From IMG/VR virus record IMGVR_UViG_3300045988_007086, positions 1-47,211 of that record: a stretch of 47,211 nt of DNA. One strand, written 5' to 3'. The number at the start of each line of letters is the position of its first letter. Within the stretch, counting starts at the first letter, position 1. The notes beneath the pieces are model-generated. The model saw only the letters and a list, made by a program, of their open reading frames with translations, searched no databases and was not told the DNA's origin. The stretch comes from a virus. Positions 1 through 45,753 of the stretch are shown piece by piece. The translations under genes were made by a program, and so were the position numbers.

Positions 1-27
1 TGGGTTCGATTCCCGTACGGGTCACCA
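1..27 (+). other. tRNA 3'-end fragment (T-arm, acceptor 3' strand, discriminator A, CCA), the att core
   Basis: tGGG-TTCGATT-CCCGT-ACGGGTC-A-CCA gives a canonical T-loop, 5-bp T-stem 3' half, 7-nt acceptor strand and CCA. No D-arm or anticodon arm lies upstream in the second copy. Confidence 0.8.
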
Positions 28-38
28 AAAAGAGAAAT

Positions 39-72
39 CCCGCAATTCATTGAGATTGCGGGTTTTTCTTTA
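39..72 (+). terminator. Rho-independent terminator following the tRNA fragment
   Basis: CCCGCAAT / ATTGCGGG stem (39..46 and 55..62), 8-nt loop, then TTTTTCTTT. Confidence 0.7.
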
Positions 73-179
73 CATACCAACGCTTTCCGGGTTTTTGTGC
101 GTTGTAATATCTGACGCATTCTTGCATTGTCTGACGCATTCAGGATGCAATTTTCAACACAAAACGCTAACGAAAAATG

Positions 180-653
180 CTAACGTTTTTGCTTCACAAT
201 GCACCTGTAATACGCGCAAAGCTTTTCCTCCGGGCCGGGGCCGTCCTTGTCCATCAAGAACGCCCGCGCCAGTTCCGCGTAGAACTCCGGCACGTTGACT
301 CCGAATTTCCGCGCCACATCGTAGTAGTCCGAATACATCATGTTCATGGTCACACCCCACGCCCAGCGGGGGATGTCGTGCGGGATGCCGCTCGCATCCG
401 CGACGGCGGAAGTCTGATCCATCGTCCAGTGCGGGCCGGTCGTGCCGTCGGCATTCTGCATGCGCTCGGCCCACTGCATGGCCGTCTCTCGGTCAAACTC
501 TGCCGCTTCCGGCTGGTCTTCGCGGCAGTCCAGCTTTTCCAGCCTGCGGATCGTCTTTGCGTACAGGCCGACTTCCTCCGCGCTGCCCAGCGTCACAGGT
601 TTCTCCATGGCCTCGTGCAGCTTTGTGTAAAGCTTTTCGATATATTCTTTCAT
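180..653 (-). CDS. Hypothetical protein (157 aa), moron region
   Basis: Track ORF 180..791 trimmed to ATG 653, preceded by GGAGG (revcomp of 661..670). Upstream gene stops at 658. No family recognised. Confidence 0.75.
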   Translation of the reverse strand: MKEYIEKLYTKLHEAMEKPVTLGSAEEVGLYAKTIRRLEKLDCREDQPEAAEFDRETAMQWAERMQNADGTTGPHWTMDQTSAVADASGIPHDIPRWAWGVTMNMMYSDYYDVARKFGVNVPEFYAELARAFLMDKDGPGPEEKLCAYYRCIVKQKR

Positions 654-657
654 CTCG

Positions 658-996
658 TCACGCCTCCTGCATGTATCGGTAGAGTTTGTCCACGTCGTTC
701 TGATCAAAGCGCAGCTCGCCAATGATCGGCACCGTGACCGGCAGCTTCTGGCCGTCAAAACGCGGCCTTGCCGCATTATAGAGCCGGTCAAGGTCGATGT
801 TCCCGGCCTCGTCCATTACGCCCATCATCTTTACCGCCGGATTCTCGCGCAGCGCAAGGATCTTCTCGCGGCTGCCCTCCATGATGAGTGCCAGCATGAT
901 CCCGGCCCCGATGCCCTTGCCGCCCGGCAGGTGTGGAATGACCTCATTGTCCGCGTAGCGCATCGCGCCGCGCATGGCCTGATCTATCGTTACCAT
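658..996 (-). CDS. Hypothetical protein (112 aa)
   Basis: ATG 996 with GGAGG 7 nt upstream; tightly packed with 180..653. Confidence 0.75.
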   Translation of the reverse strand: MVTIDQAMRGAMRYADNEVIPHLPGGKGIGAGIMLALIMEGSREKILALRENPAVKMMGVMDEAGNIDLDRLYNAARPRFDGQKLPVTVPIIGELRFDQNDVDKLYRYMQEA

Positions 997-1045
997 AAGG
1001 ATACCTCCGTGTTAAGAGTGGGGCGGCGCTTGCCGCCCCTTTTGC

Positions 1046-1681
1046 TTAGCTGTTGCAGCACCCGCCGCACTTCTGGATCGGGTTGTAGAGCGTCTGCGCC
1101 GTGGTCGCGGTGCCCGTGGTGACGTCGGCGACCTGCTTCGGGTAAAAGGTCGCGTTGACGTAGGTGACGATGGAGTTGTCACCGCAGCAGCGGCGCTCGG
1201 CCTCCATCTTGATCGCATCAAGCGCTTCCTTGCGGACGGACTCGACGTCCTGCTTTACCAGCGTGAAACTGTCCTCAGTGCGCTGGTTGTGGACGGCCTG
1301 CTTGCACAGCGCCTCACGGACGTCCTTGAGCTGCCTGTCGATATAACCGTACACCTCCAGCATCTTGCCGTCGTTGTACGTGTTGGCCTTGAGCAGCGCG
1401 ATCTCGCTGTCCTTCGCGGCCAGCTTCTGCTCCCGGTCGAGATCGTAGCGCGTGACCGGCATGTTCTCGCTGCACGTCGGTTCCTGCTGCCGTGCGGCGA
1501 GCATGGCGGCGACCGTCATGGCAGGCGTAACTGCTGCAACGACGTCAGCGGCTGCCGGCTTGTTGTTCTGTCCGATGCCGCCCAGCAGATTGCCGAGCCC
1601 GCCGTTTGCCAGACTCATCGCAGCGCCGCCGATGCCAAAGCCCAGCGCAGTCCCCGCGAGTCCCTTGCTTGCGTACTCCAT
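1046..1681 (-). CDS. Hypothetical protein (211 aa) with glycine-zipper N-terminus, coiled-coil middle and Cys-rich C-terminus (CC...CGGCC)
   Basis: Track ORF 1046..1810 trimmed to ATG 1681 with GGAGG upstream. N-terminus is GLAGTALGFGIGGAAMSLANGGLGNLLGGIG. C-terminus is RRCCGDN...IQKCGGCCNS. Confidence 0.7.
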   Translation of the reverse strand: MEYASKGLAGTALGFGIGGAAMSLANGGLGNLLGGIGQNNKPAAADVVAAVTPAMTVAAMLAARQQEPTCSENMPVTRYDLDREQKLAAKDSEIALLKANTYNDGKMLEVYGYIDRQLKDVREALCKQAVHNQRTEDSFTLVKQDVESVRKEALDAIKMEAERRCCGDNSIVTYVNATFYPKQVADVTTGTATTAQTLYNPIQKCGGCCNS

Positions 1682-1791
1682 AGTAGTACCTCCGATAAAA
1701 TAGTAAGCTGGCCAGCTCCTATGCTCATTATGAGGCATCCACGAAGAACAAAAAACCAACTCTTCGGCCACTTTTCGGGCACAAAATGTAT

Positions 1792-1822
1792 AAAAAAACA
1801 GCCACTCCATACGGAGTGGCTG
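1792..1822 (-). terminator. Rho-independent terminator after the NYN gene
   Basis: Minus strand reads CAGCCACTCC-GTAT-GGAGTGGCTG (10-bp stem) followed by TTTTTTT. Confidence 0.85.
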
Positions 1823-1839
1823 CCTTCACATATGATAGT

Positions 1840-2547
1840 TTAATCCTGTTTTTCAATTGGCATGATCATCTTCTTATGTTCCCGCTTCTTCCAGCACGAC
1901 TTAAGCCCGTCAATGTGCTCGAACAAGTCCTTGGGAATGGTTGCCTCCATTGGATCAAGAATGAAGTCAATTCCCTCTCGTCTGGCCAGTTTTGCTGCTG
2001 GCACAAAGTCGCTGTCGCCTGCCAGTAAAATTATCTGATCTACTTGTTTTTTATACGCAAGTGACGCAATATCTAATCCGATGCGCATATCAACGCCTTT
2101 CTGGTTGAAGGAGATCGTAAAATCTGATTCCGTTAAATCCTCAACGCTTCGTTCCTTTCTGCACAGTGCCTTTGTAGCATCCGCCGAAAGTGCAAAGTGC
2201 GCGCCGGCATCAGACAGCCGACCCATTCGGAGTGCGACCTTGCGTTTCTTTTTCAATTCTTCAAAAAATGCATTTGCCCAACGATAAGTATCGGATTTTC
2301 CAAAGTCGATCCCGCACTTCAACGCAGGATGATAGACCGTCTTTTTCAGCGGCGGGCAATCGTAATAGAAGATACGATACAGTTCACGCTCTTCTCTGTG
2401 GTCACTATCCTTCCCTTCATCGCGAATGTGTGCCATGCAGTAGGCATACAATTCGTTTGCGCGGTCAATCGGGCTTTTATCACCCCGAAGGTAAAACGCC
2501 CGCTTTCTGTAAAACGCACCATCTACAAGAATTGCTGTCTTTTTCAT
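1840..2547 (-). CDS. NYN-domain (LabA/DUF88-like, PIN-fold) putative ribonuclease, 235 aa
   Basis: Three acidic NYN motifs are visible: AILVDGAFY, QKGVDMRIGLD and LLAGDSDFVPA...REG. ATG 2547 with AGGAG 7 nt upstream. Visibly more AT-rich than its neighbours. Confidence 0.8.
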   Translation of the reverse strand: MKKTAILVDGAFYRKRAFYLRGDKSPIDRANELYAYCMAHIRDEGKDSDHREERELYRIFYYDCPPLKKTVYHPALKCGIDFGKSDTYRWANAFFEELKKKRKVALRMGRLSDAGAHFALSADATKALCRKERSVEDLTESDFTISFNQKGVDMRIGLDIASLAYKKQVDQIILLAGDSDFVPAAKLARREGIDFILDPMEATIPKDLFEHIDGLKSCWKKREHKKMIMPIEKQD

Positions 2548-2677
2548 ATGTCAGCTCCTAAAAAAATGATGAAGCCCCCGGTTGCAGCATTCCCCGTATG
2601 AATGGGGTGCTTAATACCGGGGGCCTGTTAATGGCACAACGGACGTAGTAAACAAACATTACTTTCGTTGTGCTTAT

Positions 2678-2706
2678 ATATTATGACAGCAAAAATTCAT
2701 TGTCAA
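2678..2706 (-). promoter_or_regulatory. Sigma-70-type promoter for the NYN gene
   Basis: Minus strand reads TTGACA (2706..2701), 17-nt spacer, TAATAT (2683..2678). Confidence 0.6.
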
Positions 2707-2732
2707 CCCATTTAGTAAAATTTAATATTCAG

Positions 2733-2755
2733 GAGCCGCCCTATCCGGGCGGCTC
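2733..2755 (-). terminator. Hairpin/terminator at the end of the lysis operon
   Basis: GAGCCGCCC / GGGCGGCTC 9-bp stem overlapping the stop of 2741..2965. Followed on the minus strand by an A/U-rich tract, not a clean U-run. Confidence 0.5.
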
Positions 2756-2965
2756 TGTTGCATGTTCCCGCAGTACATTCACGCACCGCGCTATGATCTT
2801 CTTGACGCCGTTTACGCTCAGGCCCTCGCGCTCGGCAATGCGCTCATGGCTCCAATCGTCAAGAATCTTCCGTTTCAGGATTTCCCGGTATCGCTCCGAA
2901 AGAATCCATTCGTCGATCAAATGCTCCCAATCGCTGCGGCTCAGACTCGGCAGCCCCCGCAGCAT
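2741..2965 (-). CDS. Small sigma-70 region-4-like HTH protein (74 aa)
   Basis: The pattern DEWILSERYREILKRKILDDWSHERIAEREGLSVNGVKKIIARC resembles region-4 / LuxR-type HTH proteins. Start is coupled to the endolysin stop (AAGTAAGGAGGGCATG). Confidence 0.6.
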   Translation of the reverse strand: MLRGLPSLSRSDWEHLIDEWILSERYREILKRKILDDWSHERIAEREGLSVNGVKKIIARCVNVLREHATEPPG

Positions 2966-2974
2966 ACGCCCTCC

Positions 2975-3670
2975 TTACTTCGTGTCCAGCACGGCGATAT
3001 TGCCCTTATTGCTGACCCTCAGGCCCAGCGCGGCGGCGATATCGCGCACCTTTACATAGTTCGTGCCGTTTTTCAGGATACGTTCGACGGCGACCTCCTT
3101 GCCGTCCACGATCATTTTGCTTTTTTCTACCACTTCATCTTCAAACCTTTCCAAGAATTTTTTCCACTGCTCGTTGCCAGTGGTGTGATAGTAGGTGTTC
3201 ATGTCCGTGCCTACAAAAGGACGCGGGCAGTACTTCCCGGACACATCATAGTGCCGGATAATGTGATCAGCCGGAATGTTGTGCTCCTCCATGAGCTTGC
3301 AGATGAGCCACTCGGCATTGTCCAGCACCTTTTTCTCGAAGAACCAGTCTGTGTCGTAGGCTCCCATGCGCTTCGGATTGACCTTCTTCGGTCTCAGCTC
3401 TACGCCGATGGAGTTCCAGTTCCGGCACTCCGGATGCAGCGTACCGTCTCCGCAGTGCCACGCCACATCCGTGTCCTTGACGCACCGGTAAATGATATCG
3501 CCCTCGTCTACGGCGTAGTGCGCGCTGGCTCTGGCCTGCGGGTTTTTGAACCACTCGGCCACGCTGGCCGCAGAGCCGAGTGCGCCGAAGTAGTGGACGA
3601 CGATCCATTTCGGCGTGCATCCGCCCGCTCGATGGTTGATCGGCGTGAGTGCGTCCTTAATTACCGGCAT
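2975..3670 (-). CDS. Endolysin: N-acetylmuramoyl-L-alanine amidase (Amidase_2/PGRP) with a C-terminal wall-binding-like domain
   Basis: IVVHYFGA...SAHYAVDEGDIIYRCVKDTDVAWHCGDG...NSIGVEL is typical of Amidase_2. Trimmed to ATG 3670 with GGAGG 8 nt upstream. Sits after the holin genes. Confidence 0.9.
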   Translation of the reverse strand: MPVIKDALTPINHRAGGCTPKWIVVHYFGALGSAASVAEWFKNPQARASAHYAVDEGDIIYRCVKDTDVAWHCGDGTLHPECRNWNSIGVELRPKKVNPKRMGAYDTDWFFEKKVLDNAEWLICKLMEEHNIPADHIIRHYDVSGKYCPRPFVGTDMNTYYHTTGNEQWKKFLERFEDEVVEKSKMIVDGKEVAVERILKNGTNYVKVRDIAAALGLRVSNKGNIAVLDTK

Positions 3671-3872
3671 TGGTTGCGCCTCCATCCACTGCATCCTGCA
3701 CCTTCTGGCTCTGCGTGCCGAAGTAGAACGCGATGATTACCGCGTAGATTGTCATGAAGTCCTGCGAGATCTTCTCGGCCACCGCCATGTAGGCGAACAC
3801 GCCCGTCAGAACCAGCGTCACAAGGCTCTTCACGCTCAGGAGATTCCCGAGCCGCTTGATGATCTTATCCAT
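3657..3872 (-). CDS. Holin (71 aa, two predicted TM segments)
   Basis: Trimmed to ATG 3872 with GGAGG upstream. Hydrophobic stretches SLVTLVLTGVFAYMAV and FMTIYAVIIAFYFG. Overlaps the endolysin start. Confidence 0.75.
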   Translation of the reverse strand: MDKIIKRLGNLLSVKSLVTLVLTGVFAYMAVAEKISQDFMTIYAVIIAFYFGTQSQKVQDAVDGGATNAGN

Positions 3873-4125
3873 CGTATGTACCTCCATCGTCTTTATCATT
3901 TGGTTTTGCAAATACTCTCTTGAGCAGGAGCAAAATCAGCTCCCCGCCGAAGGCCGCGCCCGCGAATACCAGCACATCCGAAAGGTCGCACGTCCTATCC
4001 AGCAGGACGGCGGCGGTTTTCAGGATCATCGCCCATGTGGCCACTGCCGTGAGCATCCACAGGCAGTAGTATACAAGCTCGCGGGCCATACGGCCCTTTG
4101 TCCATCGTTTCTTGTCTCTGCGCAT
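3865..4125 (-). CDS. Small membrane protein of the lysis cassette (86 aa, holin-like)
   Basis: Two hydrophobic helices. ATGA overlap with the upstream gene at 4125. Confidence 0.6.
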   Translation of the reverse strand: MRRDKKRWTKGRMARELVYYCLWMLTAVATWAMILKTAAVLLDRTCDLSDVLVFAGAAFGGELILLLLKRVFAKPNDKDDGGTYDG

Positions 4126-4517
4126 CAGCCCAGCCCCAGCTTCGCCAGCGCAAATCCAATCAGCCCTGCAAGGATCGCCGTGATAACTCCCTTTACGACC
4201 GCCTCCCAGCGGCTTCCCGGCAGCGCCTTGATGCTTTTCACATCGGCCTTGATCTCGTTCACGTTTTCCTCGATCGCCTCCTGCTTGGTCGCCAGCACCT
4301 CCACCGAGGTCGCCAGCTGATGCAGCGCCCTGTTGTCTGCCTCCAGCTCATCGATCCTGTGCGAGTTGCTCTTGCATCGCGCCTCCACGGAGGCGATCTG
4401 CGCCTGAATTCCATCATCCATCTTGATACTCCTTTCAAAGCTTTCTATTTCGCACTCCGGGCAAACCATCCTGCCCTCCGGCACGGCCCGTCCGCAGCAT
4501 ACGCAAGTATCCATCAC
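4125..4517 (-). CDS. XhlA-like lysis-associated protein with an N-terminal zinc ribbon (130 aa; alternative internal start at 4421 gives 98 aa)
   Basis: Coiled coil plus C-terminal TM (VVKGVITAILAGLIGFALAKLG), as in XhlA. N-terminus carries CVCCG...CPEC. Both ATG 4517 (GGAG upstream, ATGA-coupled) and ATG 4421 (AGGAG upstream) have an RBS. Confidence 0.6.
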   Translation of the reverse strand: MMDTCVCCGRAVPEGRMVCPECEIESFERSIKMDDGIQAQIASVEARCKSNSHRIDELEADNRALHQLATSVEVLATKQEAIEENVNEIKADVKSIKALPGSRWEAVVKGVITAILAGLIGFALAKLGLG

Positions 4518-6445
4518 CTGATCTCCTCATTGATCGTCGCAATTACCGCCGACGCATCCGTGCAGATCAGACTTACGCGGATGTAGTGCTCACCGGGTGC
4601 TGTTACCGTGACGATGTCTCCATTGCTGGCGAAATTGAGACTATTCCATGCATGTCCGTTGTATATGTAGCTTGTAGATACCAACGTTGCCGTTGCGCTG
4701 TACTCTGCTGCTGCACTTTTCCCATCATTCGCAGCGGGGAGACTCACACCCTTTATGCGAAGCGTATCGCCAGCCGAAAGGTGAATAAGGCTTGTTGCGT
4801 CCATATTTGCGCCGATTGTCGCCCATCCTACCTGCGCTTTGTTCGTGCCGCTCGATGTGCTCAGCCGCGTATCCGCAGATATGCCGACAGTATTGATGAT
4901 GTTTGTGATCTCTGCTGCACAGGTAATCACAATGTCGCCCAATACTTTTGGAATTGTGATCGTGCTGCCGGATACCACCGAAGCGGAAATGTCAACCCCG
5001 CGCATTGTGACAGTGATCGTGCCAAGCTTTTTGTATGTTCCCGTAGGCGTGAGCGTCGTAGTGTAGGCTGTGCCCTCGGCAATGCTGTCAGCCGTGTTGG
5101 AAGATGCACAGTTGGTGAGATTTAGCTTGATGTCGTAAGTCACAGACGGTGCAGAGGCCGCCGCAGTGATCGTGACTGCTCCCGTCACCTTTGCGATGTT
5201 GATTGCCCCACTACCTGCTGAATAAGCTGTAGATGTAATGTCCACGCCGCCCATTTTGATTACTACCGATGTGATTGTCTTTCCGCTTTCCGGCGTGATA
5301 GTCGCGGTGTACGCCTCGCCGTAATCCACCTGAGATGCACCGTTGCTGATCGTGCATCCTGTGAGATTTTTGGTGATGCTCTGATACCAGTGCAGCGTCT
5401 CTGGCGTTCCGTTGGTCATAGCCGCGCGGTAAGCGTTGATATCAGCCAGCGATATTCCGCATGTGCCAACCGCGAAGTGAACGCATTTGTCACGGAAGCT
5501 GTCACCGGAAACGGCCTTAATGGCATTGATAAGTCCAATCCACTCTGGTTCATTTCTCCGCCGCGCGAGGGCGTCCGTTCCCGAACCGGAATAAAATGTA
5601 GTCAACTCGTAGTCCTTGTCGATATTGCTCTGACTCATACCGAGCAGCCCTTCAAGCACACAAGCCAGCGTGCCGGTTCTGTCCGCGCCTGCCGTGCAAT
5701 GGAAATACACCGGCTCCCGGTGTGTCACCGCGTCAATCACGCACCGGAGGTAGAGCTGCCACGTTGCAACCGGCACCAGTGCGTAAGACGCTGCCTTGTC
5801 GGCAATCGTAAACCACACATCGCTGCCAAGCGGGGATTCCGTTGCAACATCGCCATCGGACGGATCGCGTCCCTCTTTGCCTCTGAGATCGATTTCATGC
5901 TGCACGCCGAGCTGGCCGACCAATACCGCCCGATCTGCGGCAGAGATACGCCCGCCTCGAATCAGCAGCCCGTATTTCACGGTGCCGCCGTCGCAGGCCC
6001 AGCCTCCCAGATCGCGCACATTCCACGCTTCTGCGGAGTTGTTGCGCGTGCGAATCCAGCGTAGCGCATCCAGCGGCTTGAGCGTCCCCGCAGCATTGTT
6101 CCCGGCAAATGGCGTGAGGACATTCGGCACTTCGTTGTAGTGCGTCACCCCGCCCGCCTCCTGCCCGATTGGCTTGTAGTTGCCCACAACTGCCGTCGCA
6201 GGCGCATAATTTGCAATCTGCGACGTGCTGTAATCAGCGGGATCGTATGTGACGTTTGCGAGGTAGTTTCGAACCAGCTCCGGGCATTGATGCCATTCTA
6301 AGGCTTCCACAGCGCCGGTCTCGATTGCCTGAATGGCAGACACAAACCCGGACGGGTACACCAGCTGCGCATCCGTGCCTCCCTTCGCTCGGATTGCGTC
6401 GGCGACAGCCGTCAGATCTGCCGTGTTTGTCAGGTATTCCGCCAT
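4514..6445 (-). CDS. Tail fibre / receptor-binding protein (643 aa) with an embedded tyrosine-phosphatase-like domain, two Ig-like repeats and a C-terminal domain
   Basis: Trimmed to ATG 6445 (ATGA overlap with the collagen fibre gene). Carries WNVRDLGG, then HCTAGADRTG (5672..5701), the CX5R P-loop. Two roughly 80-aa repeats at 4910..5389. It is the last structural gene before lysis. Confidence 0.8.
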   Translation of the reverse strand: MAEYLTNTADLTAVADAIRAKGGTDAQLVYPSGFVSAIQAIETGAVEALEWHQCPELVRNYLANVTYDPADYSTSQIANYAPATAVVGNYKPIGQEAGGVTHYNEVPNVLTPFAGNNAAGTLKPLDALRWIRTRNNSAEAWNVRDLGGWACDGGTVKYGLLIRGGRISAADRAVLVGQLGVQHEIDLRGKEGRDPSDGDVATESPLGSDVWFTIADKAASYALVPVATWQLYLRCVIDAVTHREPVYFHCTAGADRTGTLACVLEGLLGMSQSNIDKDYELTTFYSGSGTDALARRRNEPEWIGLINAIKAVSGDSFRDKCVHFAVGTCGISLADINAYRAAMTNGTPETLHWYQSITKNLTGCTISNGASQVDYGEAYTATITPESGKTITSVVIKMGGVDITSTAYSAGSGAINIAKVTGAVTITAAASAPSVTYDIKLNLTNCASSNTADSIAEGTAYTTTLTPTGTYKKLGTITVTMRGVDISASVVSGSTITIPKVLGDIVITCAAEITNIINTVGISADTRLSTSSGTNKAQVGWATIGANMDATSLIHLSAGDTLRIKGVSLPAANDGKSAAAEYSATATLVSTSYIYNGHAWNSLNFASNGDIVTVTAPGEHYIRVSLICTDASAVIATINEEIR

Positions 6446-7494
6446 CAGAAGCTCCCTCCATTCGCGTTTGCGATCTCTACAGCTGCCCATGCTCCATCCA
6501 CAACGCGCAGGAATTTCCCGTTATCAGCGGATGTAACAGATGGAACACCTTTTGGAATTTCCACGGTTTTCGCCGCGCTTCCGTCGTAGCTCGTTGTCGT
6601 ATCGCCGATCTTGATGTTGAGCGAATAAGGATTTTTGAGTTCCGTCGGAATCGTGGGGATATCGGACTCTTTCGCCAGCGTTCCGGCCCATGCCATCCAA
6701 GCGAACCCGTTGAATGCCACAACTAGATACATCGGTTTTTGCGTCGGATCGTTTGATCCAAGCGCTCCAAATCCAAGCACCACCAACCCGGAAACGCTTG
6801 CCGTGAGCGCAAGTGGAAGTGTGAATGGTCTGTCAGCATCGCTGAACTTTGCAATCGCATACACCGCATACCCTGCCGCATAGGCCGCATACACCTCCTC
6901 AGCCGTTTTGTCTGCGGTTGCGTTGTTGCCGTTTCCTTGCGTCACCGTCACATAAAACGCGCTCTTCGCTGCGCCAGTCGCGCCATTCACGCTTTTAACC
7001 GGCACATCATCCGCGCCGATGGGCGTGAACCCGAGCGCACCGACAACCGCATCCTTCGTGACATTCGCATTGTCCCCGTTTGCGCCCTTCGGAATTCCGA
7101 GGTTAAGCGTAGGCTGTGCGGCTGTTCCGCCCATGCTTGCCGTAGCCTCGCTTCCTGCGGGCAGCGTCGTCACCGTCCCTATCTTGATATCCGGCGTCAC
7201 GCCATCCTTACCGGGTGCTCCATCCTTGCCGGGTGCTCCATCCTCACCGGGTACTCCATCCTTGCCGGGGCTTCCGTCTTTGCCGGGAGCTCCGTCCGGG
7301 CCTGCGGGGCCTGTCGCACCCCTCGACGGCTTCCCGGTGTCCTCGTCTCCGAGATACCAGTTCCCGTTTGCTCCGATCGTCGGCGTAATGCCGTCCTTGC
7401 CGTCCTGCCCGGTGCCGCCGCCTCCGCCCGCCGGAATCTCATAGGTATCCGGAAGCCCCGGAAATGTAACTGATTTTAATGGTTTTTTCACCAA
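6445..7494 (-). CDS. Collagen-like (GXY repeat) tail fibre protein, 349 aa
   Basis: Contains GATGPAGPDGAPGKDGSPGKDGVPGEDGAPGKDGAPGKDG. TTG 7494 (or GTG 7491) after GGGAGGTG. Confidence 0.85.
   Translation of the reverse strand: MVKKPLKSVTFPGLPDTYEIPAGGGGGTGQDGKDGITPTIGANGNWYLGDEDTGKPSRGATGPAGPDGAPGKDGSPGKDGVPGEDGAPGKDGAPGKDGVTPDIKIGTVTTLPAGSEATASMGGTAAQPTLNLGIPKGANGDNANVTKDAVVGALGFTPIGADDVPVKSVNGATGAAKSAFYVTVTQGNGNNATADKTAEEVYAAYAAGYAVYAIAKFSDADRPFTLPLALTASVSGLVVLGFGALGSNDPTQKPMYLVVAFNGFAWMAWAGTLAKESDIPTIPTELKNPYSLNIKIGDTTTSYDGSAAKTVEIPKGVPSVTSADNGKFLRVVDGAWAAVEIANANGGSF
7195..7330. repeat. Tandem 9/18-bp repeats encoding the GXY triplets
   Basis: ccatccttgccgggtgct-type units are repeated. 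Confidence 0.8.
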
Positions 7495-8868: not shown

Positions 8869-9225
8869 TTATTCCACACGCGCAATGTTCCCGCTCGCAA
8901 GCGTGGTACGGTTGCCGTGCGTGTATAAAATGTCGTACCGGTAGATTCCGCGCGGGAACTTGGCCGTCACCTCGTCCGTGAACGCCAGCGTTACCGTGTT
9001 CTCGTCCGCTCCGGTGAAGGAGAATTCCTGCACGGCCTTCTTTGTCCAGTCGTAGAATGTGACCTTGATCTTGTCCGTCTGCCCGATGGCCACGTCCGCG
9101 CCGTCCTGGTCCTCCAGCTCCAGCCGGAGCCGGAGGGAGAACGTATCTCCCTCATACCAGCAAATGCACCCGTTCGCAATGCGCGGGCTGACCCGCGCGC
9201 CGGGGATCGTGTTTGCCGCACTCAT
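8869..9225 (-). CDS. Hypothetical virion protein (118 aa)
   Basis: Trimmed to ATG 9225, which forms an ATGA overlap with the stop of the giant gene. Confidence 0.7.
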   Translation of the reverse strand: MSAANTIPGARVSPRIANGCICWYEGDTFSLRLRLELEDQDGADVAIGQTDKIKVTFYDWTKKAVQEFSFTGADENTVTLAFTDEVTAKFPRGIYRYDILYTHGNRTTLASGNIARVE

Positions 9226-12200
9226 TTCTTGTCTCCTTTCCTTTTGTTGGCCTCCCGCCGCCACTTGATGATGTTGTCCCGCGCCTTATCCGCATCGCCT
9301 CCGATAGCCTTGTACGCGCTGATGTAGGCATTCTTGAGCCGTGTCGCCTCGTCGCCGGTCGCCGCCAGCCACGCTTCCTTGAAGTGTTTTGTGAGCTGAG
9401 AGGACAGGTCGCCCTTGTCCACACCGTGCTTCATATACTCCTTGGCAACCTTCCGCGTATCGGCCAGCACGCCCTTGTCCACTGCGTCGAGGAACTGTCC
9501 GTACTTCTTCCAGCCCTCGCCGCCCTTCCACTCTTCGAGCGTCCAGTAAACGTCGTGTTCATCCTCCGCCCCGCAGTACTTTTGCAGATAGTCGGATACC
9601 TCGCTCTCTGGCATGGAGCCGCCCAAATAGTCCTCCTTGAGCTGACTTTTCAGGTCACTCTTCACGGCCTTTTCCGCATCCTCCTGCGCCTTTCCGTCCG
9701 CCACCTTCGCGCTGACGGCGTTCTGGTAAAAAGCATCCCATGTATCGCCGCCCGCTTTCAGCGCCTCCCTGTACCCGCTCCAAGGTTCAAATCCCGTTGC
9801 TGAGTAGTTTGCCGCCAGCAATGCCGACTTCTGACTCCCGGTCAACTCCATGCCGTCGAGGATACCCATCGCTTCGTCGCGCTTACTTCCGGAAATCGTC
9901 TTTCCGTCCGCGTCCTTCTCGCCCTCCACGTTCGCAGCCATCACTGAGTAGGCAATGCTTGCCGATTCCGGAACGCCGTTGTCGGCGAGTTTCTTAAACT
10001 TCTCAACATATGCGTCCGCTTCATAATCGTCGAACAGTACGCCCTTTGCCTGTTCCGCCGCATAGTCGTAGAGCTTCGCAAGCATTTTCGCCTGCTGATC
10101 GTCGCCCGCGCTCTGGAATGCATCAGACTGCACAAGTTCATTGAGGCTGTTTCTGACTGCCTCGCTCCACACCATGTCATATGTCTGCTTCTGATATGCC
10201 TTAAGCTCACGCTTTTCGTCGTGGATATTGACGGAGGACGGCGTGTCCGCCGGGGCCGCGTTCGCGTATCCTGCCTCGTACAGTCTTGCCACTGCCTGCA
10301 CGGCTTCGCTGCTCACATCTACATCCCGCACCTGAAACACGTGCTGCACACGCATCCGCAGCGCGTCTCCCGTCAGCCCTTTCAGCAGATTCCTGTTCGC
10401 CGTCTGCATTGCATCGTCATACGCCGTTCCAAGCGCAGGGGATACCGTCTTGACCGTCCCGAGAATATACGTCTCCAGATTGTTTGCCGGAAGCGAAAAC
10501 CCATATGTGGCGATCTCCTTTGCCAGATTCCGGATGTCTCCGAGCATATCGTTCCCGTACCGTTTCAGGTAAAGTGTCAAATCTCCCTTGTTCTTAATCA
10601 GGTCTGCTCCGTCCGTCACGAACTTGTTGATGTTTTTCCCGTGCGTGTCTATCAGCTCCAGCACTTTGTTGAGCTGCTCCACGCTCTGCGAGTTGAAAAT
10701 GTCATAGAATCGCTCTCCCGACAATGTGCCGCCGATCAGTTCCACGACCTCTTCTCCGCCAATCGACGCGGCTCCCGCGATGCTGGAAAGCAGATCCTCT
10801 CCCATGCCTTTCAGTACGCTCAGCGCCGTCAGGTTCCCGTCGTCGTCTCTGTATTTCTTGTCTCTGTGCTTCAATAGCGCCATGAGGAACGTTACCGCCG
10901 TAGACCATATATAGCCGCCCGCTGCGGAAACGAACGCCTGCCCGACGCGGCGGTTTGCGCGGCGCTGCACTTCGATGGATGCTCCGCTGCGCTTGTAGTA
11001 CTGCGCCTCTCCGATCGCCTGACGTACCGTGTTGTATACCTGCGCCGAGTCCGAACGGAACATGGTGACTGCTTTCGCCAGCGCATTCTTGCTCTTGCGC
11101 AGCCTGCCTTGGTGCATTTCATCGGATGTAGACTGGCTTCGCGCCACAGCGTCGTTGAAGCGCTCTGCGACCTTCTGATAAAACGGGCTTTGCCCTGCGT
11201 CGATCTGTTCCTGCGTCCCGATTTCCAGCTCCGGGTTTTCTCTTCGCACGGCGTTTTCTGCCCACGGCCACAGCGTGCTTGCTGCCCATCCGTCCATGGC
11301 TGTGATCGCGCCGCCTCCGAACGCAAAGTTCAACACTTTGTTGTTCTGAATCTTTGTCGGATGATCCTTGAGCTGCTTTGTCTCCGGCGTCGCGTAGCCC
11401 ATGAGCCGGTAATCGAGCATCTTGGTATACTTTGAGATCAGCGTTCTGTCGATCTGTGCGATTTGCTTCGGGCTTGGCGTGTTCTCCGCGCCGAGATAAG
11501 CCGCTGCCAGGGGAATGGAGCCTGCCTGCTTGAACACGATAGACGGATTGAATCCGAACGTCGCCGCAATGTAGTTGCTGAATATCTTGTCTGCGGCAGT
11601 CGTTACAAAGTCCTGTTCACTGCTTCCGCCCGCCTCCAGCTTTGTAAGCTGATCCATGATGTATTTTTCTGTTACCTCGCCCCATTTCCCGTCGATCACG
11701 GTTTTCATGGATGTCGTGCTTCCGCGCCAGTTGAGCAGTGTTTTCCAGTTCCGCGCCGGGATCGCCATTCCTACGAAGCGTGACGTCTGGCTGACGTTCC
11801 GCTCGAAAGCGTCGTAAGCGCCGATGTTGTATGTCGGATTCTTGGACACCTGCCGCGTCTTGAGGTTTCCGACGCCCTCTGCCGTCGCGTCATAGATTCC
11901 CGGCTCACTCTTCGTGAAGCTGCTGTTCGTGAAGATCGGCGCATAGTTTTTCCCCATGGCCTTGTCGTATCCATACAGAATGTTAGATACACGGTTGATC
12001 TCGCTCTTTGCGTATCCGTTGTAATACCTGTCCAGCACGTCCGCCAGCGCCTTTTCCTCAACGGTCAGGTCGGAAACGATCGCCTTTACCGTCTCCGGCG
12101 CAAGCTTGACCGTAGTCCCTTGCGCGAACGCCTCCTGCCGCTTTCCCTTGCTGTAAAGCTCCCGGTTTGCGAATGTGCGGCCGCCCGCCATGTGGCGGAG

Positions 12201-15200
12201 ATTATCGTAGTTCCTGCTTTCCAGATACATGTGTACCTTCTGTGCTGGTGTCATGTATACCGTGACGGTTTTCCCGAAGATCGGTTTGTCTCCCATGCCC
12301 AGCTCCAGCAGCTCCGGCACCTTGATCTCGTACCAGATCGCATCCTTGCCCTGTCCATCCGACCGCATGACCCATTCCCGGTTTTTCTGCATGAAGTCCT
12401 TCAAGATCTGTGCCGCCGTGACCTGATACGACTGCGCATCGCGTTCGCCCTTCTCCAGCTGCTTCGCCATGCCGTACCATGTGCTGTTGGGATTCCACCC
12501 CGCCATGCGTTCCAGCACGTTCATGGTGCTCAGCTGCTCCATGTTCATAAATCGATCTGTCAGTTTTCCCGTGTATCCGCCCGCTGCGCTGTTGATCTCC
12601 CGCACCGAATCTGCATAAACGTCCTCGAATATGCGCTCTTCCGCGTCCCCAAGCACCCGGTTCCGGTTCGCAAACTCTGTCCGCAGCTCTACCGCCGCCT
12701 GATACAGCTTTCCCAGCGCGTCCAGATCCATGTCCCCGATCTTTCTCGCGTCCAGTCTCGTTACGATGCGCTCAAGCTCCTTTGACGGTAGGAAGTTCGG
12801 GTCGTTTGCTTTCGCATCCTGGTACATCTGCGCCAAATCCCGCCACGTCGCGTTGTACTTTCCAGACCACTGCATTTCGTTTGCAGTGCCGACGGCGTAA
12901 AGATCAATATCACTCAGCACCTCGTCGAACTGCTCACGCAGCTCCTCCGGCGCACGGAAGCGATTCTTGTTGAGCCATTGCAGTGTCTTGAGCGTCTTCT
13001 TCTGAAGCTCCTGAAGCTCCCTTCGCGCCTTCTGCCGCGCGGCCATATCCTTTCGGTCTTGCCGTTCCAGCGCCCTGCGGTTTGCCTCTCTGGCCTTCTC
13101 GCGCTGTATCCTCTCGTCGATCCGCGCCTCCATCGCGTCAATAAGCTTTCCCTTGCTCTTGGCGAGTGCGGCATCCTTCTTCTGCAGCCGTTCATCCGTG
13201 CGGGCCTCCATCGCTTCAATGAGCTTCTGCCTGCTTCTGTCCGTCGCTGCGTCTTTCTTCTGTAGCCGTTCATCCGTGCGGGCCTCCATGGCCTCGATCA
13301 CGCCCGCATTGTTCTGCGATCTCTGCGCATTGCGTTGTGCCGATCTGTCCCGTTCTGCCTCAATGGCCGCCGTCTTGTCGCCCCGAAGCTTCACCTCAAG
13401 CTTTGCCTTTTCGGCGAAAGTCCGCATCGCCCAGTCCAGCTGCCGCTCCATGTTTTCAAGGATCGCATCGTCCGATACAAAATCCTTTCCGGCCAGCGCC
13501 TGCGCGTACTCAGACAGGCTCAGATTCTGATCCTGCGCTTCCTCCGCTGCCTGCACGATCTGCTCCAGCTTTTGCCTCTGGCTCCCGCCGGTCTCGCTGA
13601 ACGTGTCAGGTGCCGCCTCAGACAGTGCCTGTGTCCACGCTTCGGCGCTCCGGTCTGCGGTGCTGTCTGTGAGATAGATCCCGGCCTCGAACGCTCGTTT
13701 GCGGAAGTCGTTCCATTCGCTTCCGAATTCCCGCCTCGCGCGTTCGCTGACATAGAGCCGCCCATCTCCCACGATATCCGGCACAGCGTCCGGCTGCTGC
13801 CGCAGGCTCTCCATCATCGCCCCGGAGGAATAAAGCCTGGCGAGGAACACATCGCGGTCTGTCTGCGTCAGCTCTCCGTTTGTGTAAATGCGGTCTGCAA
13901 AATAATCGATCACGCGTCCAACATCCGTCCGCTGTGTTTTCGATACGGAGAACATTTTGAACAGCGTGCTTTTCAGCTCCCGCTGTGCAATGGTCGGTAG
14001 ATTGACCCGTTCCGACCGCCTCTTGTCCTCCTGACCGTCAGCCGCCTCTGTAACCGAAAATTTTTCTTGACTTTTCTGCTCTGTTCTGCGTATACTGGGT
14101 TCAGAGACGGATGCAGTGTTTCTGTTGGTTCCCGGTGACGGGTTCTCAGCTTTCGCTGCATCGGTCTCTTTTTCTGTGAAAGAGGTTGGCTGCAGATTTA
14201 GAATGTCGTACAGCAACATGCTTCCGCTTTCCCGTGTGCCTACTACCACTTCCGCCGTGTAGCCGTTTCCACCCACGCGCAGCAGCACATTGCCTCTCGC
14301 AAAGTCTGCGATTTTGTCCTTGCGTGGATGGTTCAGCCCTTCGTTCACCCAGTCCGTTGTTGCGCGCAGGATTTCGTCTGCATTGTCCGTGGCGCGCAGT
14401 TTGTCCGCCCGCAGCTGCGGGTCGTTGTTGTAGAGCCACTGCATATACCGCGAGAATGTCATCTCCTGACGGCTCTGATAGTCAATATTGATCTCGTTGT
14501 TCCCCACAGTGATGCCGTTGGGGAACTTTTTCTTCAGGTTCTCCTTGATGGTCTTCACCCAGTCCGCTTCCGGCACGCCCGCGAGGATGTCCTGTTCCAC
14601 CTCCACGAACGGCTTGTTGTCCGTGGTCTTTCCGATGCTATACTTCTCCGGCGGGCCTCGTGTCCCGCCGGTTTTTTCCGCCGTCTGAGCTGTCGTTCGC
14701 AGCTCTGCCGCCTCCCGGACGGTCTGCTGATACTGCTCCGCGTGGGTGCCGAATGCGTTGATTCCCGCATAAGCGTCCGCATAGATCTCTTCCTTGATGG
14801 CATTCAGCGCTTCGTCGAATTCCGCGTCCGTCCCCTCTGTCGGCACGTCATTGACACCGCGCCGGGAACGAATGTATGTCTCGACGATTTGGTCAAATTC
14901 TTCCTCGCTGAACGTATCCCGAATGTGCTGTTCGATCTGCGCATTCAGTCCCGGCGTGTTGTCTGCGATCCAGTGGTATGTCTCATGAGATGCCAGTTGG
15001 TCAATAGTCGCCCGAAGGTTGTCCGCCTGAACGATGATCCTGTCTCCGGTGAACACCGCCGCTGCGCGCGCTGTGCCGCCGTTTGACGTTCTGACCTGCA
15101 AAGGCCCGAGCACATATGTCGTCTCAAGTCCTGTCCGTTGCTTGACTCTCGCCGCAGTCTCTTTCATGCCTGCATCCCAATTTTCCCGCATAAAAACCGT

Positions 15201-18200
15201 GTTGCCGCGATAGCCCGTCCCACGGCTCACCCCAAGCTCGACGGTGCTTACTTTCGGGAGCCGAAGATCTCTTGCACGATTCTGTCTTTCAACTGCTGTT
15301 CTGCTTTGCTGAGCGGCCGCGTTTGTTTTTCCTGTCCTGCCTGCCACTGCTCCAAACGGCTTTCCGGCACGTCGATCAGACTCCCGTCTCGATCCTCCAT
15401 CAGGTACGACGTTTTCTTGCTGCTCTTCAAGTCTTACCGCTCCTTTCTTGTTTGTCTCCTGCACCGGTGCTTCTTCCTGTGTCGCGGTCTGTTCGGCCTG
15501 CTTTGGCCCCGGAAGCGTCGTCTCCCGTGCCAGCTCTTCTGTCTCCTGAACCGCCTGACTTGCCGCCTGTGCAGGTGCCGGCTTCGGTGCTTCTGCTTCC
15601 TGCGTGATCTGCTGTTGCTCCGCTCTTGAAGGCTTCTGCATTTGCTGCGTTTCTGTGCCGCCCGGGATCAGCTCCAGCGCCGCTTGGATCGCTTCCAGCG
15701 TTGCGTCTCGCGTGTATCCGCTCAGCTCCGTGCTTGCCTTTGCCTGCGCCGCTTCGAATATCTCCCGTGTTTCCTGTGTCAGGATGCGCGCTTCTTCCTC
15801 GTTCTCTACAGTCAGTGTACTCAAGTACGAGTTTATAAACCGACTGTTTAGCCAGTTCATCATATAAGCAATGTCCACCGCAGTCCCACTGTTGATCCCG
15901 TATCTGTCTGTATAGTCCCGCTCTATCTGCTTTGTTCTTTTTGCAAACTGCTCGTTTGCGTTGCTCCAGCTTCCAAATATCTCGTCTCTTCGTTCCGGCT
16001 CCAGTGAAAACACTCTGTCTTTTTTTGCTTGCGCCTGCTCGTATTTTGTGAGCTGTGGTTCCTTGTTGAAGTCGATTTCCCGCGTCTCTGCTCGCCGTCC
16101 GGCGTCTGCTTGCGTTCTCTTCCCGGTCTGCGTCTGTACATTCTGTACTTCCTGCACGGCCTGTGTGGTCTGCGCCGGTGTCTGCTGCTGCCTTTCCGCT
16201 TCCTGAACGGCCTGTGCGGGTGCTTGCTGGCGGGCCTCTCTTGCCGCCTGCCGCGCATCCCGCTCATCCGCATACTGGTTGTACGTCTGAAAAGCCGCCT
16301 CGGCCTGCGCGGCCTGATCGGCTTTGACCGCCGAATTCACAACTGCCTGCACCTCTGCCGTCTCCGGCATCTGACCGGCCTTTACCTTGTCCATGACCGC
16401 CTGCGCAGCCTCTGCGGTCGCCTGATCCCCGCGCTCCTTTGCCATCGACTCCACTGCGTCCATGACCTGTCCGATCACGTTCAGCTGTTTGCCCCTGTTG
16501 CGTGCCTCCACGGCCTTGTTCGTTCCTGCGTATGCTCCGGACATGGCAAGACCGGAAATGCCGCCCGCGAGGAACGAAAGCCCGTCCTCTTTCAGCATGT
16601 CTCCCAGCGTCAGCGCAAGCGCCTTTTCCTTTGTATTGCCCTTTGAAAGATACTCCGCATACGCGCCCATGACCTCGCCCCGGTCGTGCTTTGCCACAAC
16701 GTCGTAGATTCGGTTGAGCCAGTTGGAGGCGATCTCTTCCGCGCCCTCGGACGCGAACGCCCGCATCACTTTCTTCCACACCTGCTTTCCGCTGAGCATG
16801 GTCTTGATCTTGTCGCCCACAGAGTATTTCTCCGTTAAGCCCTCGATTGCGCCCTCAACAATGCCGTCAATAAGCGCCTCCTGATTGGATTTGCCGCTCT
16901 GAATTCCCGCATACACGGAATCCGCCGCGACCTGCGACCCCATCACCCAGTTCATCGTCTCTGCCACCGCCGAGGACGCCGCTTCTCCGCTGAGTCCCGT
17001 CGTTCCGACGATTGCGGTCGATGCGGCCATGTTGACCGCGCTGTCCAGCGCGGATGTTCCTGCCTGATACAAAAACTGTCCGACCGGCCCCATGCCCTCC
17101 ATGACGCCGCTGCGGATGCCGCTCGACTCGTGCGTTGCGAAATACAGTGGGCTGTAGATGTTTGTCGGCATGTCCTCGTTCTGGTATCCGCCGAGCCACT
17201 TCGGCAGAATGCCGCGAAGCGATTCGATGTTTCCGAGTGCCTTGAACGGGGCGAGCAGGGAAGAAGCGACGGTCGATGTGACCGGCGCGTCTTGGCCGAA
17301 CTTCCGCGCGCTTTGCGACCGCTTCTGGTAATCCTCGAAGTCCTCCAGATACTTTTCGTATTCTGCCAGCCGTTTGATCTGATCGTATGAGTATCCCTTC
17401 TGCCGAAGCTTCCATTCTGCTCCTTCGTTGTCTGCCAGGTATCCGGTCTTGTTGTATTCCCGCAGAAGCTCCCGTGTCTCCTCATCCAGCGCGCCGATCG
17501 TGTTCTCCGCCTGCCCCAGTGCGCGTGCGGAATCCAGCGCCGCTTTTCTGGTCTCCAGCGTGTCGATCTCGCTCTGTATGTCCCTGACCCCTCGAGCCTG
17601 CCTGCGCGTCCCGTTCTCATCGGTGTACCAAGCCGTCCCGTTCTCGTCAAACTGATAGTCTCGGAAATGCTCGTCGGATTTCTGCTCATATAGCTGATCC
17701 AGTTGCTTCTGTATCTCTGCCGAAGTCCGCTTCATGCCGCGCAGCTGATCCGGAAGGACCGTCTCCCTGTATCGCTTTTCCTGCTCCGCAGCCCGTCTTT
17801 CCAGCTCCCCGTCGAACTGATTCAGACCGATCAGGCGGCTATAGTCCTGCCCGGCATTCGTCGCCGCCTGCTGGGCCGCCGTTCCGGTCTGCACCTTGCG
17901 CTGAAACTGTAGATACTTCTGAATATCCTGTGCCGCCTGTACGCGCGGCTGCATATCCCCGTCGAGCTGATTCAGGCCGAGCATGCGGCTGTAGTCCCGC
18001 TTCTGGCTTCCGCCCGCCTGCTGGGCAGCCGTGCCGACGGATACCCTGCGTGGGAATTCCGTCTGCTTCTGGTACTCCGCGACATACTGCTTGTACTGCT
18101 GATACGCTGCCTCATAGCTCTGCGGCGTCGCTTTCTTGGTGTTCGTCCGGTAATCCGGATTATACGGGCCGTTCGTGACGTTCTGCCTGCCGCCGCTTGC

Positions 18201-41693: not shown

Positions 41694-42734
41694 ATGAAAG
41701 TCCCCGAGCCTCGAAAGCTGAAATCCGGCACATGGTTCATCCAGCTCCGCCTTGGCGGCGAGAGCATCCCCGTCTCCGCCCTCACGCGCTCCGACTGCAT
41801 CAAGCAGGCGCAGCTCATCAAGGCCCAGCACCGCGCCGACGCCCGCGAAATCAAATACAAGACGGACAAGACCGTCCGTGATATTATACAGGATTATATT
41901 GACGCACTGCCCGCCGGTACGTCTCCATCGACAGTGCGAGGCTACTTAAGCGTTGCTTCGACACGATTCGCATCGGTCATGGATAAGACCCCGTCGAGCG
42001 TGCGCGACTGGCAGGCCGTGATCGATGCCGAAGCAAAGTCTGTCTCTCCGAAAACCGTAAAAAATGCGTGGGGCCTGCTTTCGTCTGCCCTGCGCAGCGC
42101 AGAGATCCCCGTCCCACGCATCCGCCTTCCGCAGCCTCACAAGGCGGAGAAACTTTGGCTGGAGCCGGAGCAACTTCCGGAATTCGTTCGACTCATTCAC
42201 GGCGACCGTTTTGAAATTCCTATGCTTTTGGCTCTGCACGGCCTCCGGCGCTCCGAGATTCTCGCCATGACCTACGACAAAATCGACCTTAAACGCGGCA
42301 CCATCACCGTCCACGGTGCCGCAGTCCTCGACCGTGACGGCGCAATGGTGCAAAAGGCCGAAAATAAGAATGCCAGCTCCCGCCGCGTTATCCCGATCAT
42401 GATTCCAGCCCTTGCGGCAGCCATCGAAGCCGTGCCTCCTGAACAGCGCACCGGCTTGATCTACGACGCCAATCCCACAACGTTGTATTGGCGCATAAAT
42501 ACCATCTGCAAAAACAACGGTCTCCCGGCGGTCGGCGTCCACGGCCTGCGCCACAGCTTCGCGTCGCTGGCATATCATCTTGGCTTGTCTGCGCAGGAAA
42601 CAATGGAGCTTGGCGGCTGGGCCGACAGCGATACCATGCTCAAGATTTATACGCACCTCGCGCAGGCCGACCGACTCAAGAGTCAGAATAAAATCGCCGC
42701 CTTTTTCGCAGAAAATGCTAACCAAAATGCTTAA
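41694..42734 (+). CDS. int: Tyrosine recombinase / phage integrase (346 aa)
   Basis: C-terminal catalytic region with LHGLRRSE, HGLRHSFASLA and IYTH (R..HxxR..Y). GGAGGTG upstream of ATG 41694. attP lies immediately downstream. Confidence 0.9.
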   Translation: MKVPEPRKLKSGTWFIQLRLGGESIPVSALTRSDCIKQAQLIKAQHRADAREIKYKTDKTVRDIIQDYIDALPAGTSPSTVRGYLSVASTRFASVMDKTPSSVRDWQAVIDAEAKSVSPKTVKNAWGLLSSALRSAEIPVPRIRLPQPHKAEKLWLEPEQLPEFVRLIHGDRFEIPMLLALHGLRRSEILAMTYDKIDLKRGTITVHGAAVLDRDGAMVQKAENKNASSRRVIPIMIPALAAAIEAVPPEQRTGLIYDANPTTLYWRINTICKNNGLPAVGVHGLRHSFASLAYHLGLSAQETMELGGWADSDTMLKIYTHLAQADRLKSQNKIAAFFAENANQNA

Positions 42735-42779: not shown

Positions 42780-42806
42780 TGGGTTCGATTCCCGTACGGG
42801 TCACCA
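42780..42806 (+). other. tRNA 3'-end fragment (attP core) 45 nt downstream of the integrase stop
   Basis: Same 27 nt as 1..27. Preceded by non-tRNA sequence (..ttcatttctt), so it is a fragment and not a gene. Confidence 0.8.
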
Positions 42807-42817
42807 AAAAGAGAAAT

Positions 42818-42851
42818 CCCGCAATTCATTGAGATTGCGGGTTTTTCTTTA
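42818..42851 (+). terminator. Second copy of the tRNA-type terminator
   Basis: Identical to 39..72. Confidence 0.7.
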
Positions 42852-42958
42852 CATACCAACGCTTTCCGGGTTTTTGTGCGTTGTAATATCTGACGCATTC
42901 TTGCATTGTCTGACGCATTCAGGATGCAATTTTCAACACAAAACGCTAACGAAAAATG

Positions 42959-43432: not shown

Positions 43433-43436
43433 CTCG

Positions 43437-43775: not shown

Positions 43776-43824
43776 AAGGATACCTCCGTGTTAAGAGTGG
43801 GGCGGCGCTTGCCGCCCCTTTTGC

Positions 43825-45744: not shown

Positions 45745-45753
45745 ACGCCCTCC

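Follow-up and report, generated by a model that had tools for sequence, protein, structure and literature searches.

A predicted cysteine-based phosphatase in a putative distal fibre protein of gut phages

Known phage-fibre enzymes comprise glycosidases, lyases, esterases and a few phosphodiesterases; they set host range and serve as tools to dissect bacterial surfaces. A stretch of viral DNA from IMG/VR (record IMGVR_UViG_3300045988_007086, positions 1 to 47,211; hereafter the window, meaning the whole 47,211 nt analysed) raises the question of whether a cysteine-based phosphatase belongs on that list. On its minus strand, the window encodes a 643-amino-acid (aa) protein with the first residues MAEYLTN (4514..6445), which an initial annotation made from the letters alone had read as a tail fibre with an embedded phosphatase-like domain of the protein tyrosine phosphatase (PTP) type, carrying a CX5R motif. 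Does the fold hold, is the enzyme likely to work, does the protein belong to a fibre, and what might it act on? The features that define the phosphatase are:

4514..6445, minus strand: complete gene for the phosphatase-bearing, putative fibre protein, stop codon at 4514..4516
5396..6031, minus strand: Cys-based phosphatase domain of the Y_phosphatase3 type (residues 139-350), from Pfam, PDB profile and Foldseek
6002..6025, minus strand: WNVRDLGG motif (residues 141-148), from the translation, running on into a family-specific GGWxCDGG block
5672..5701, minus strand: P-loop HCTAGADRTG (residues 249-258), from the translation, with the nucleophile Cys250, Asp255 and Arg256

The translations confirm the gene and the placement of both motifs as first annotated. 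They also support the proposed Y_phosphatase3-type fold, because Pfam, a PDB profile search and a Foldseek search of the predicted model agree. Residues 139-298 match Pfam PF13350 (Y_phosphatase3) with 85.5 bits against a gathering cut-off of 22.2 bits (E 7.2e-24), a score far above chance expectation. The best sequence matches among solved structures were a PTP of Clostridioides difficile (8dhi/8dhj) and PtpB of Mycobacterium tuberculosis (1ywf), and a profile built from the family alignment reached 8dhi at E 1.8e-16 and PtpB at 8e-7. With a 140-sequence alignment as input, AlphaFold2 returned a model with a mean predicted local distance difference test (pLDDT) score of 94.7 and a predicted template-modelling (TM) score of 0.73. 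When this predicted model was compared to the PDB with Foldseek, 8dhj, 8dhi, 1ywf and 2oz5 ranked at the top (E 3.5e-8 to 1e-6, probability 1.0), with TM scores on the target of 0.55-0.63. Lower matches included TpbA, Siw14 (6byf), PTPMT1 (3rgo) and many dual-specificity phosphatases, as well as 4kyr and 4rkk (E about 3-5e-3), which we take to be the glucan phosphatases LSF2 and laforin. A Pfam scan of the protein yielded phosphatase and immunoglobulin (Ig) matches and no other family, neither GDPD nor PTP-like phytase, and fold searches with the full model gave PTP and Ig folds only, placing the protein outside the GDPD and phi29 gp12 families.

PtpB (1ywf, 2oz5) and the C. difficile PTP (8dhi, 8dhj) thus share with our protein the fold, the NxRDxGG motif and an HCxAGxDRTG P-loop followed by DY. 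However, both are free-standing enzymes of about 240-300 aa, whereas here the domain is embedded in a multi-domain phage protein of 643 aa. The putative fibre protein further has the family-specific GGWxCDGG block, the motif DKDYELTxF and, on the N-terminal side, a conserved extension of 94 aa, and its identity to PtpB or the C. difficile enzyme is only about 20%.

Conservation was assessed by searching 1.84 billion cluster representatives, which gave 10,136 proteins below an E-value of 1e-3, 419 of them below 1e-30. The best 150 representatives of 50%-identity clusters (34-78% identical, 214-1748 aa) were retained, and the P-loop could be aligned in 149 of them. The CX5R Cys and Arg are indeed conserved among these homologous fibre-type proteins: Cys250 was kept in 148/149 and Arg256 in 143/149. 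Gly253 was present in all 149, and Asp255 (148/149), His249 (146/149) and Thr257 (145/149) were lost in few. At the N-terminal side of the domain, where the NxRDxGG motif runs into the family-specific WxCDGG, residues N142, R144, D145, G147, G148, W149, C151, D152, G153 and G154 were 95-100% conserved across the 150 representatives, and the DKDYELTxF block behind the P-loop helix exceeded 90%. Among 120 close homologues, the two motif blocks formed the best-conserved 20-residue windows (0.99).

Ratios of non-synonymous to synonymous substitution (dN/dS), determined by the Nei-Gojobori method for 30 distinct full-length genes from viral contigs, are meaningful as a ranking only, as dS was saturated at about 1. 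The phosphatase domain had the lowest value of all segments (0.08), followed by the extension preceding it (residues 45-138) and the Ig-like repeats (0.12 each), the C-terminal domain (0.16), residues 575-620 within the latter (0.32) and the N-terminal 44 residues (0.36). Constraint on the gene is strongest in the phosphatase domain. As the catalytic residues are kept, the motif blocks are the best conserved and dN/dS is lowest, the domain likely retains activity, conservation and selection arguing for a working enzyme and not a relic.

Around the phosphatase, the protein comprises the following segments:

6314..6445, minus strand: N-terminal adaptor (residues 1-44), two helices in the model (residues 8-22 and 32-40)
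6032..6313, minus strand: conserved extension (residues 45-138, WHQCP...LKPLDALRWI), preceding the phosphatase domain in the family
5150..5389, minus strand: Ig-like repeat 1 (residues 353-432), beta strands in the model and a weak Big_12 match
4910..5149, minus strand: Ig-like repeat 2 (residues 433-512), beta in the model, with Foldseek matches to Ig-domain chains
4517..4909, minus strand: C-terminal beta-sandwich (residues 513-643), modelled stand-alone, candidate receptor-binding head
4586..4723, minus strand: variable patch within the C-terminal domain (residues 575-620)

Residues Q53, Y67, P92, P107, G120 and R129 of the extension are nearly invariant, and in many representatives the alignment begins only at residue 41-49. 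The two Ig-like repeats of roughly 80 aa that the initial annotation had recognised (4910..5389, residues 353-512) duplicate each other in tandem, with 41% identity (E 2e-7), and the model shows both as all-beta. Its proposal for the last 130 aa fared less uniformly. Modelled alone, this segment forms an independent beta-sandwich (pLDDT 97.5), which recurs in 80 of the 150 representatives. Its role as receptor binder is plausible from its position and from the variable patch, in which residues 581-620 show the lowest conservation (0.61-0.63 in the 120 close homologues), and not from fold identity. C-termini vary among representatives, and the comparison shows a modular design in which a shared N-terminal adaptor region is combined with exchangeable, variable distal domains.

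That the gene is the distal one of the structural genes, next to a collagen-like fibre gene and just before the lysis genes, is borne out by the gene order. The neighbours concerned are:

6445..7494, minus strand: upstream collagen-like fibre gene (349 aa), Pfam Collagen with PHROG tail and tail-fibre matches
4125..4517, minus strand: XhlA-like gene, first downstream, from PHROG matches
3657..3911, minus strand: holin-like gene, from PHROG matches
2975..3694, minus strand: Amidase_2 endolysin, from Amidase_2 and endolysin PHROGs

The PHROGs matched by the downstream lysis-region genes include phrog_937 and phrog_13256, and the placement of the phosphatase gene after other structural genes and before lysis genes is similar at other loci. 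The start codon at 6445 follows the Shine-Dalgarno sequence GGAGGGA (6453..6459, minus strand, read from the sequence) at a distance of 7 nt. Homologues of 640-646 aa start at the same position, and the identical protein was called on two ENA contigs. A longer open reading frame (ORF) of 658 aa, starting at 6490, begins within the upstream gene and is not the one used; Cys250 corresponds to C265 in the first annotation, which had numbered residues along that longer frame. Translational coupling to the collagen-like gene is real, albeit not by the ATGA first reported: the ATG at 6445 overlaps the TGA stop of the collagen-like gene by one base (TGATG), and the same one-base TGATG overlap joins the 3′ end of the phosphatase gene to the XhlA-like gene.

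Within the gene, variation or recombination is greatest in the adaptor. A tblastn search matched it, at about 80% identity, to protein N-termini encoded in MT835551 and MT835607, with divergence beyond. What comes after the adaptor is a PKD domain with BspA-type leucine-rich repeats (LRR) in MT835551 and DUF6273 in an IMG/VR locus (L097); in L097, the phosphatase protein is encoded by the next gene and starts at the WHQCPELVR block, without adaptor. The payload behind the adaptor thus differs per phage, being the phosphatase, PKD plus BspA LRR, or DUF6273. Collagen-like genes precede the adaptor-bearing genes in all three phages and share the ending ...DNGKFLRV..GAWAA..NANGGSF: the C-terminal 35 aa of the collagen-like protein are 80% identical right upstream of the adaptor-bearing gene of MT835551, and the collagen-like gene of L097 carries the same tail. 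The conserved tail-adaptor pair spans 6445..6550 with 6314..6445 in the window (both minus strand), L084:3894-4132 and L097:5900-6150. Judged from these alignments, collagen tail and adaptor look like a docking interface or the boundary of a recombination cassette, and the arrangement suggests a defined interface for swapping distal fibre payloads. The N-terminus of the neighbouring 259-aa protein, compared as well, has no similarity to the adaptor.

As to the host, the nearest genomic relative (77%) lies in a metagenome-assembled genome (MAG) of Subdoligranulum variabile, and most other relatives come from guts of humans, ruminants and other animals, in MAGs of Oscillospiraceae, Ruminococcus or Clostridia; Brotocaccenecus cirricatena CLA-AA-H272 (L059) is the one isolate with a relative. 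Going by these relatives, the phage probably infects a member of the Oscillospiraceae, and the host is likely a monoderm member of the Clostridia.

From these features we infer a virion location, docking through the adaptor, turnover, a surface substrate and a biological role, as follows. The gene would encode a distal, exchangeable subunit of the collagen-like fibre, with a phosphatase acting on host surface phosphate, a reading for and against which the balance is about level. The 44-aa adaptor would dock the protein on the conserved C-terminal tail of the collagen-like fibre; between adaptor and spacers would sit the phosphatase unit (residues 45-350), predicted to be catalytically competent; the two Ig-like repeats would serve as the spacers; and strain-specific binding would fall to the C-terminal beta-sandwich, where the variable patch lies. 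The proposed substrate is a phosphorylated glycopolymer or lipid on the host surface, whose terminal phosphate the phosphatase would remove. As a result, the receptor would be processed during adsorption, or virions would be freed from decoys and debris. In either case, the protein would be a receptor-modifying enzyme in the sense of the esterases and phosphodiesterases on other fibres.

Several observations weigh against this reading. The general-acid loop, to which the initial annotation had drawn attention, did not turn out to be uniformly kept: at the corresponding column, residue 216, only about 51% of representatives have Asp or Glu. Our protein carries Asp216, presumably opposite Asp82 of PtpB. 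With residue 216 variable, catalysis would need the P-loop Asp255 or a good leaving group; Asp255, 99% conserved, could stand in for the general acid. In a PDB fold search, the C-terminal domain gave no significant match, including any carbohydrate-binding module (CBM). Its weak likeness to CBM6 (the best, E 0.027), CBM32 and a fucose-binding module (E 0.03-0.1, TM about 0.3) is insignificant, and it was not assigned as a CBM. The docking model may not generalise, as only 47 of 123 related loci have a collagen-like gene upstream, which rules out a universal collagen-like partner. PHROGs and NCBIfam hold no family for the phosphatase fibre protein that would link it to a known fibre. Finally, we know of no phosphomonoester-bearing surface polymer in these hosts.

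The variable general-acid position would suit a domain that mainly recognises phosphate or sulfate, with little or no turnover; the protein would then be a lectin-like adhesin. In line with this, the same slot is filled by adhesin-type BspA LRR or DUF6273 in other phages, and in a 990-aa homologue (P0142) the Y_phosphatase3 domain stands three to four times in a row, an arrangement often seen in binding repeats. Bind-only pseudophosphatases, however, typically lose the Cys, which is here missing from a single one of the 149 representatives, with His249 and Asp255 kept as well, and a dN/dS of 0.08 suits an enzyme. We therefore consider a binding module unlikely and a working phosphatase the better account of the domain.

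Whether that phosphatase is on the virion surface is a separate matter. The closest solved relatives are phosphatases of proteins or lipids and include secreted effectors, among them the virulence factor MptpB, and the gene borders the lysis cassette; the protein might thus be ejected into the cell, to interfere with signalling or kinase-based defence, or be a non-virion product released at lysis. Against this speak the Ig-like repeats and variable C-terminal beta-sandwich, typical of surface-exposed binding proteins, the adaptor shared with adhesin-type payloads, the translational coupling to the collagen-like fibre gene, and homologues fused to fibre parts. In the latter, a homologous phosphatase domain is joined to Phage_fiber_rpt (P0146, P0186) or, in a 1748-aa protein (P0264), forms the C-terminal domain behind GDSL esterase domains. 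A location away from the fibre is accordingly a quite unlikely explanation. P0264 thereby unites the phosphatase with the SGNH/GDSL deacetylases of other fibres and spikes, which are likewise non-glycosidase modifying enzymes in a modular fibre but differ in fold and in the bond attacked.

If the enzyme does sit on a fibre, its substrate is the next matter. The initial annotation had suggested phosphodiester-linked glycopolymers, and the domain could in principle be a phosphodiesterase that depolymerises wall teichoic acids or phosphopolysaccharides. Fibre context and monoderm host would fit, and adsorption devices of phages of Gram-positive bacteria do include phosphodiesterases: according to PMC6116005, which cites PMC4521036 and PMC4974393, the baseplate glycerophosphodiesterase (GDPD) of Lactobacillus phage Ld17 and the phi29 gp12 tail-spike (appendage) protein cleave teichoic acid. 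Both place an enzyme acting on a phosphate ester on the host-recognition apparatus of a phage with a monoderm host, and we propose a functional analogy. They have other folds than our protein, though, and their phosphodiester cleavage has been shown experimentally, whereas the activity of the fibre phosphatase is predicted. CX5R enzymes attack terminal phosphates (phosphomonoesters and phosphoanhydrides) via a cysteinyl-phosphate intermediate, a chemistry that does not fit the teichoic-acid substrate first suggested, and to our knowledge no teichoicase with a PTP fold exists. The structural neighbours (PtpB, TpbA, Siw14, PTPMT1 and the glucan phosphatases) all act on monoesters or phosphoanhydrides, be it on proteins, lipids, inositol phosphates or glucans. 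Because both the chemistry of CX5R enzymes and that of these neighbours concern terminal phosphates, a surface glycan or lipid phosphomonoesterase appears, by analogy, more plausible than teichoic-acid phosphodiester cleavage, for which the likelihood is low.

The glucan phosphatases laforin, SEX4 and LSF2 provide a mechanistic parallel for such a phosphomonoesterase. They strip phosphomonoesters from polysaccharides and are often fused to a CBM, and they combine, as here, a PTP-fold domain with beta-sandwich modules to act on a phosphorylated glycan. The likeness is confined to mechanism, as these enzymes are eukaryotic members of the dual-specificity phosphatase subfamily and the C-terminal domain here is without a significant CBM match. 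Arg256 is the sole basic residue of the P-loop, a feature that does not speak for a polyphosphorylated substrate. An action on phytate, phosphorylated dietary glycans or mucins instead of the bacterial host, for which one might invoke the confinement of the family to gut and rumen samples and the PTP-fold phytases of rumen anaerobes, is barely credible, given that the P-loop HC(S/A/T)AGADRTG is without the extra basic residues of inositol-polyphosphate phosphatases, that Pfam gave no match to the PTP-like phytase family, and that architecture and module swapping follow host-range logic. Taken as a whole, the first interpretation of the gene is partly supported.

If a conserved Cys-phosphatase is confirmed on phage fibres, it would add a new enzyme class to them. 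Should the proposed role be true, receptor-modifying phage enzymes would gain a catalytic fold and a chemistry, the removal of phosphomonoesters, that are new among them, and a phosphorylated surface structure so far undescribed would be indicated for the abundant Oscillospiraceae commensals. The enzyme would also open up the cell-envelope chemistry of Subdoligranulum, Ruminococcus and relatives, almost unknown so far. The theme is that of enzyme-bearing receptor-binding proteins, here with a Cys-phosphatase as the enzyme.

How widespread is this arrangement? Relatives were matched in more than 3,300 clusters at 90% identity (a lower bound) and are encoded on 227 IMG/VR contigs; the family was found in gut and rumen samples only, with hundreds of sequence clusters in human, ruminant and other animal guts. 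In a genome-collection scan, the single protein as query gave no match and an alignment-based query found relatives. Tentatively, and at somewhat less than an even chance, we propose that these proteins constitute a large unrecognised class of gut-virome receptor-binding proteins with an active Cys-phosphatase, which would dephosphorylate a surface glycopolymer or lipid of Oscillospiraceae at adsorption.

The module occurs on different phage backbones. An 85%-identical copy (gene 10001-11923) lies on a 163.7-kb ENA contig (k141_1422866; L001) among fibre-like genes, i.e. a DUF6273 giant protein, Phage_fiber_rpt/Gp10_C and a YadA_head-like gene, and precedes CHAP, holin and Amidase_3 genes. Its presence on so different and so much larger a contig indicates that the module passed recently from one phage backbone to another, unrelated one. 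A homologue is also present in a phage with a P22-type portal. In BFVD, three entries from uncultured phages, one of them 83% identical, bear the automatic label 'Tyrosine phosphatase family protein', and Ig or C-terminal modules are joined to calcineurin-like phosphoesterase or GDSL lipase in other phages.

The sequence family as such is therefore already in databases as an automatic label and is not new there. UniProt A0A8S5QN55, A0A8S5V632 and A0A8S5T7U1 and the nr entry for P0114 are true homologues of the same architecture (up to 83% identical); for these entries we found database labels only, and no tail-fibre assignment, function or paper. A tblastn search of GenBank phages with the full protein returned adaptor and Ig matches only, on three faecal metagenome contigs. 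With the phosphatase domain alone and a lax threshold, INPHARED gave matches of at most 32% identity, none in a classified cultured phage: fragmentary 'Listeria phage LM' and 'Enterococcus phage Efs' contigs and faecal contigs. A full-text literature search found no paper on a phage fibre phosphatase, and PMC7291167, considered as a precedent, merely cites a vertebrate receptor-type PTP. In agreement with the initial annotation, which knew of no characterised fibre with a Cys-phosphatase, the databases and literature searched thus hold no characterised precedent, and neither the placement on a fibre nor the scale in gut viromes seems to have been described before.

Distant Y_phosphatase3 matches of about 25% identity were seen in OR849395, OR846814 and others ('Listeria phage LM 4-14-1 / 4-11-1') and in OR846620 ('Enterococcus phage Efs 1-1-1'); these short, fragmentary Listeria and Enterococcus phage records may hold host chromosomal DNA rather than phage genes. 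A stand-alone cellular homologue of 229 aa with the GGWxC motif is encoded by Treponema socranskii ATCC 35535 (L077:7992-8681). By eye, it adjoins a 265-aa metallophosphoesterase-like ORF, with three sugar ABC transporter-like ORFs downstream (a solute-binding protein and two permeases). Going by these neighbours, the cellular branch may act on a sugar phosphate, though they offer no clear substrate clue.

As for the genome that carries the gene, positions 1..4432 and 42780..47211 of the window are exact duplicates of 4,432 bp (0 mismatches). The genome is accordingly a 42,779-bp circle or a permuted assembly read past its start, and the lysis genes, an NYN gene and others appear twice in the window because of the duplicated ends. 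The phage is temperate, as judged from a tyrosine integrase on the strand opposite to the structural genes:

41694..42734, plus strand: tyrosine integrase

The structural and lysis genes discussed here are all on the minus strand. Their order begins with the small and large terminase, an internal-virion-protein-like gene, the portal, the major head protein and three unassigned genes. It continues with a 3042-aa protein, a 131-aa gene, a collagen-like gene (198 aa), the 259-aa gene and the 349-aa collagen-like gene. The phosphatase protein, the XhlA-like gene, an 86-aa ORF, the holin-like gene and the Amidase_2 endolysin complete the series. Families of tail tube, sheath and tape-measure proteins were not detected anywhere in the genome, and the phage may form a short-tailed particle with a giant internal or ejection protein, the 3042-aa product. 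The latter, a single ORF between head and fibre genes (9222..18350, minus strand), has no Pfam match and only matches to PHROGs of unknown function (22978, 28077); its sequence includes an HExxH motif (HETYH) as well as IEAMEARTDERLQKKDAA-type repeats in tandem. On the other side of the lysis genes, 3′ of the endolysin gene, lie genes for a Sigma70_r4-type protein (74 aa; 2741..2965, minus strand) and an NYN-domain protein (235 aa; 1840..2547, minus strand).

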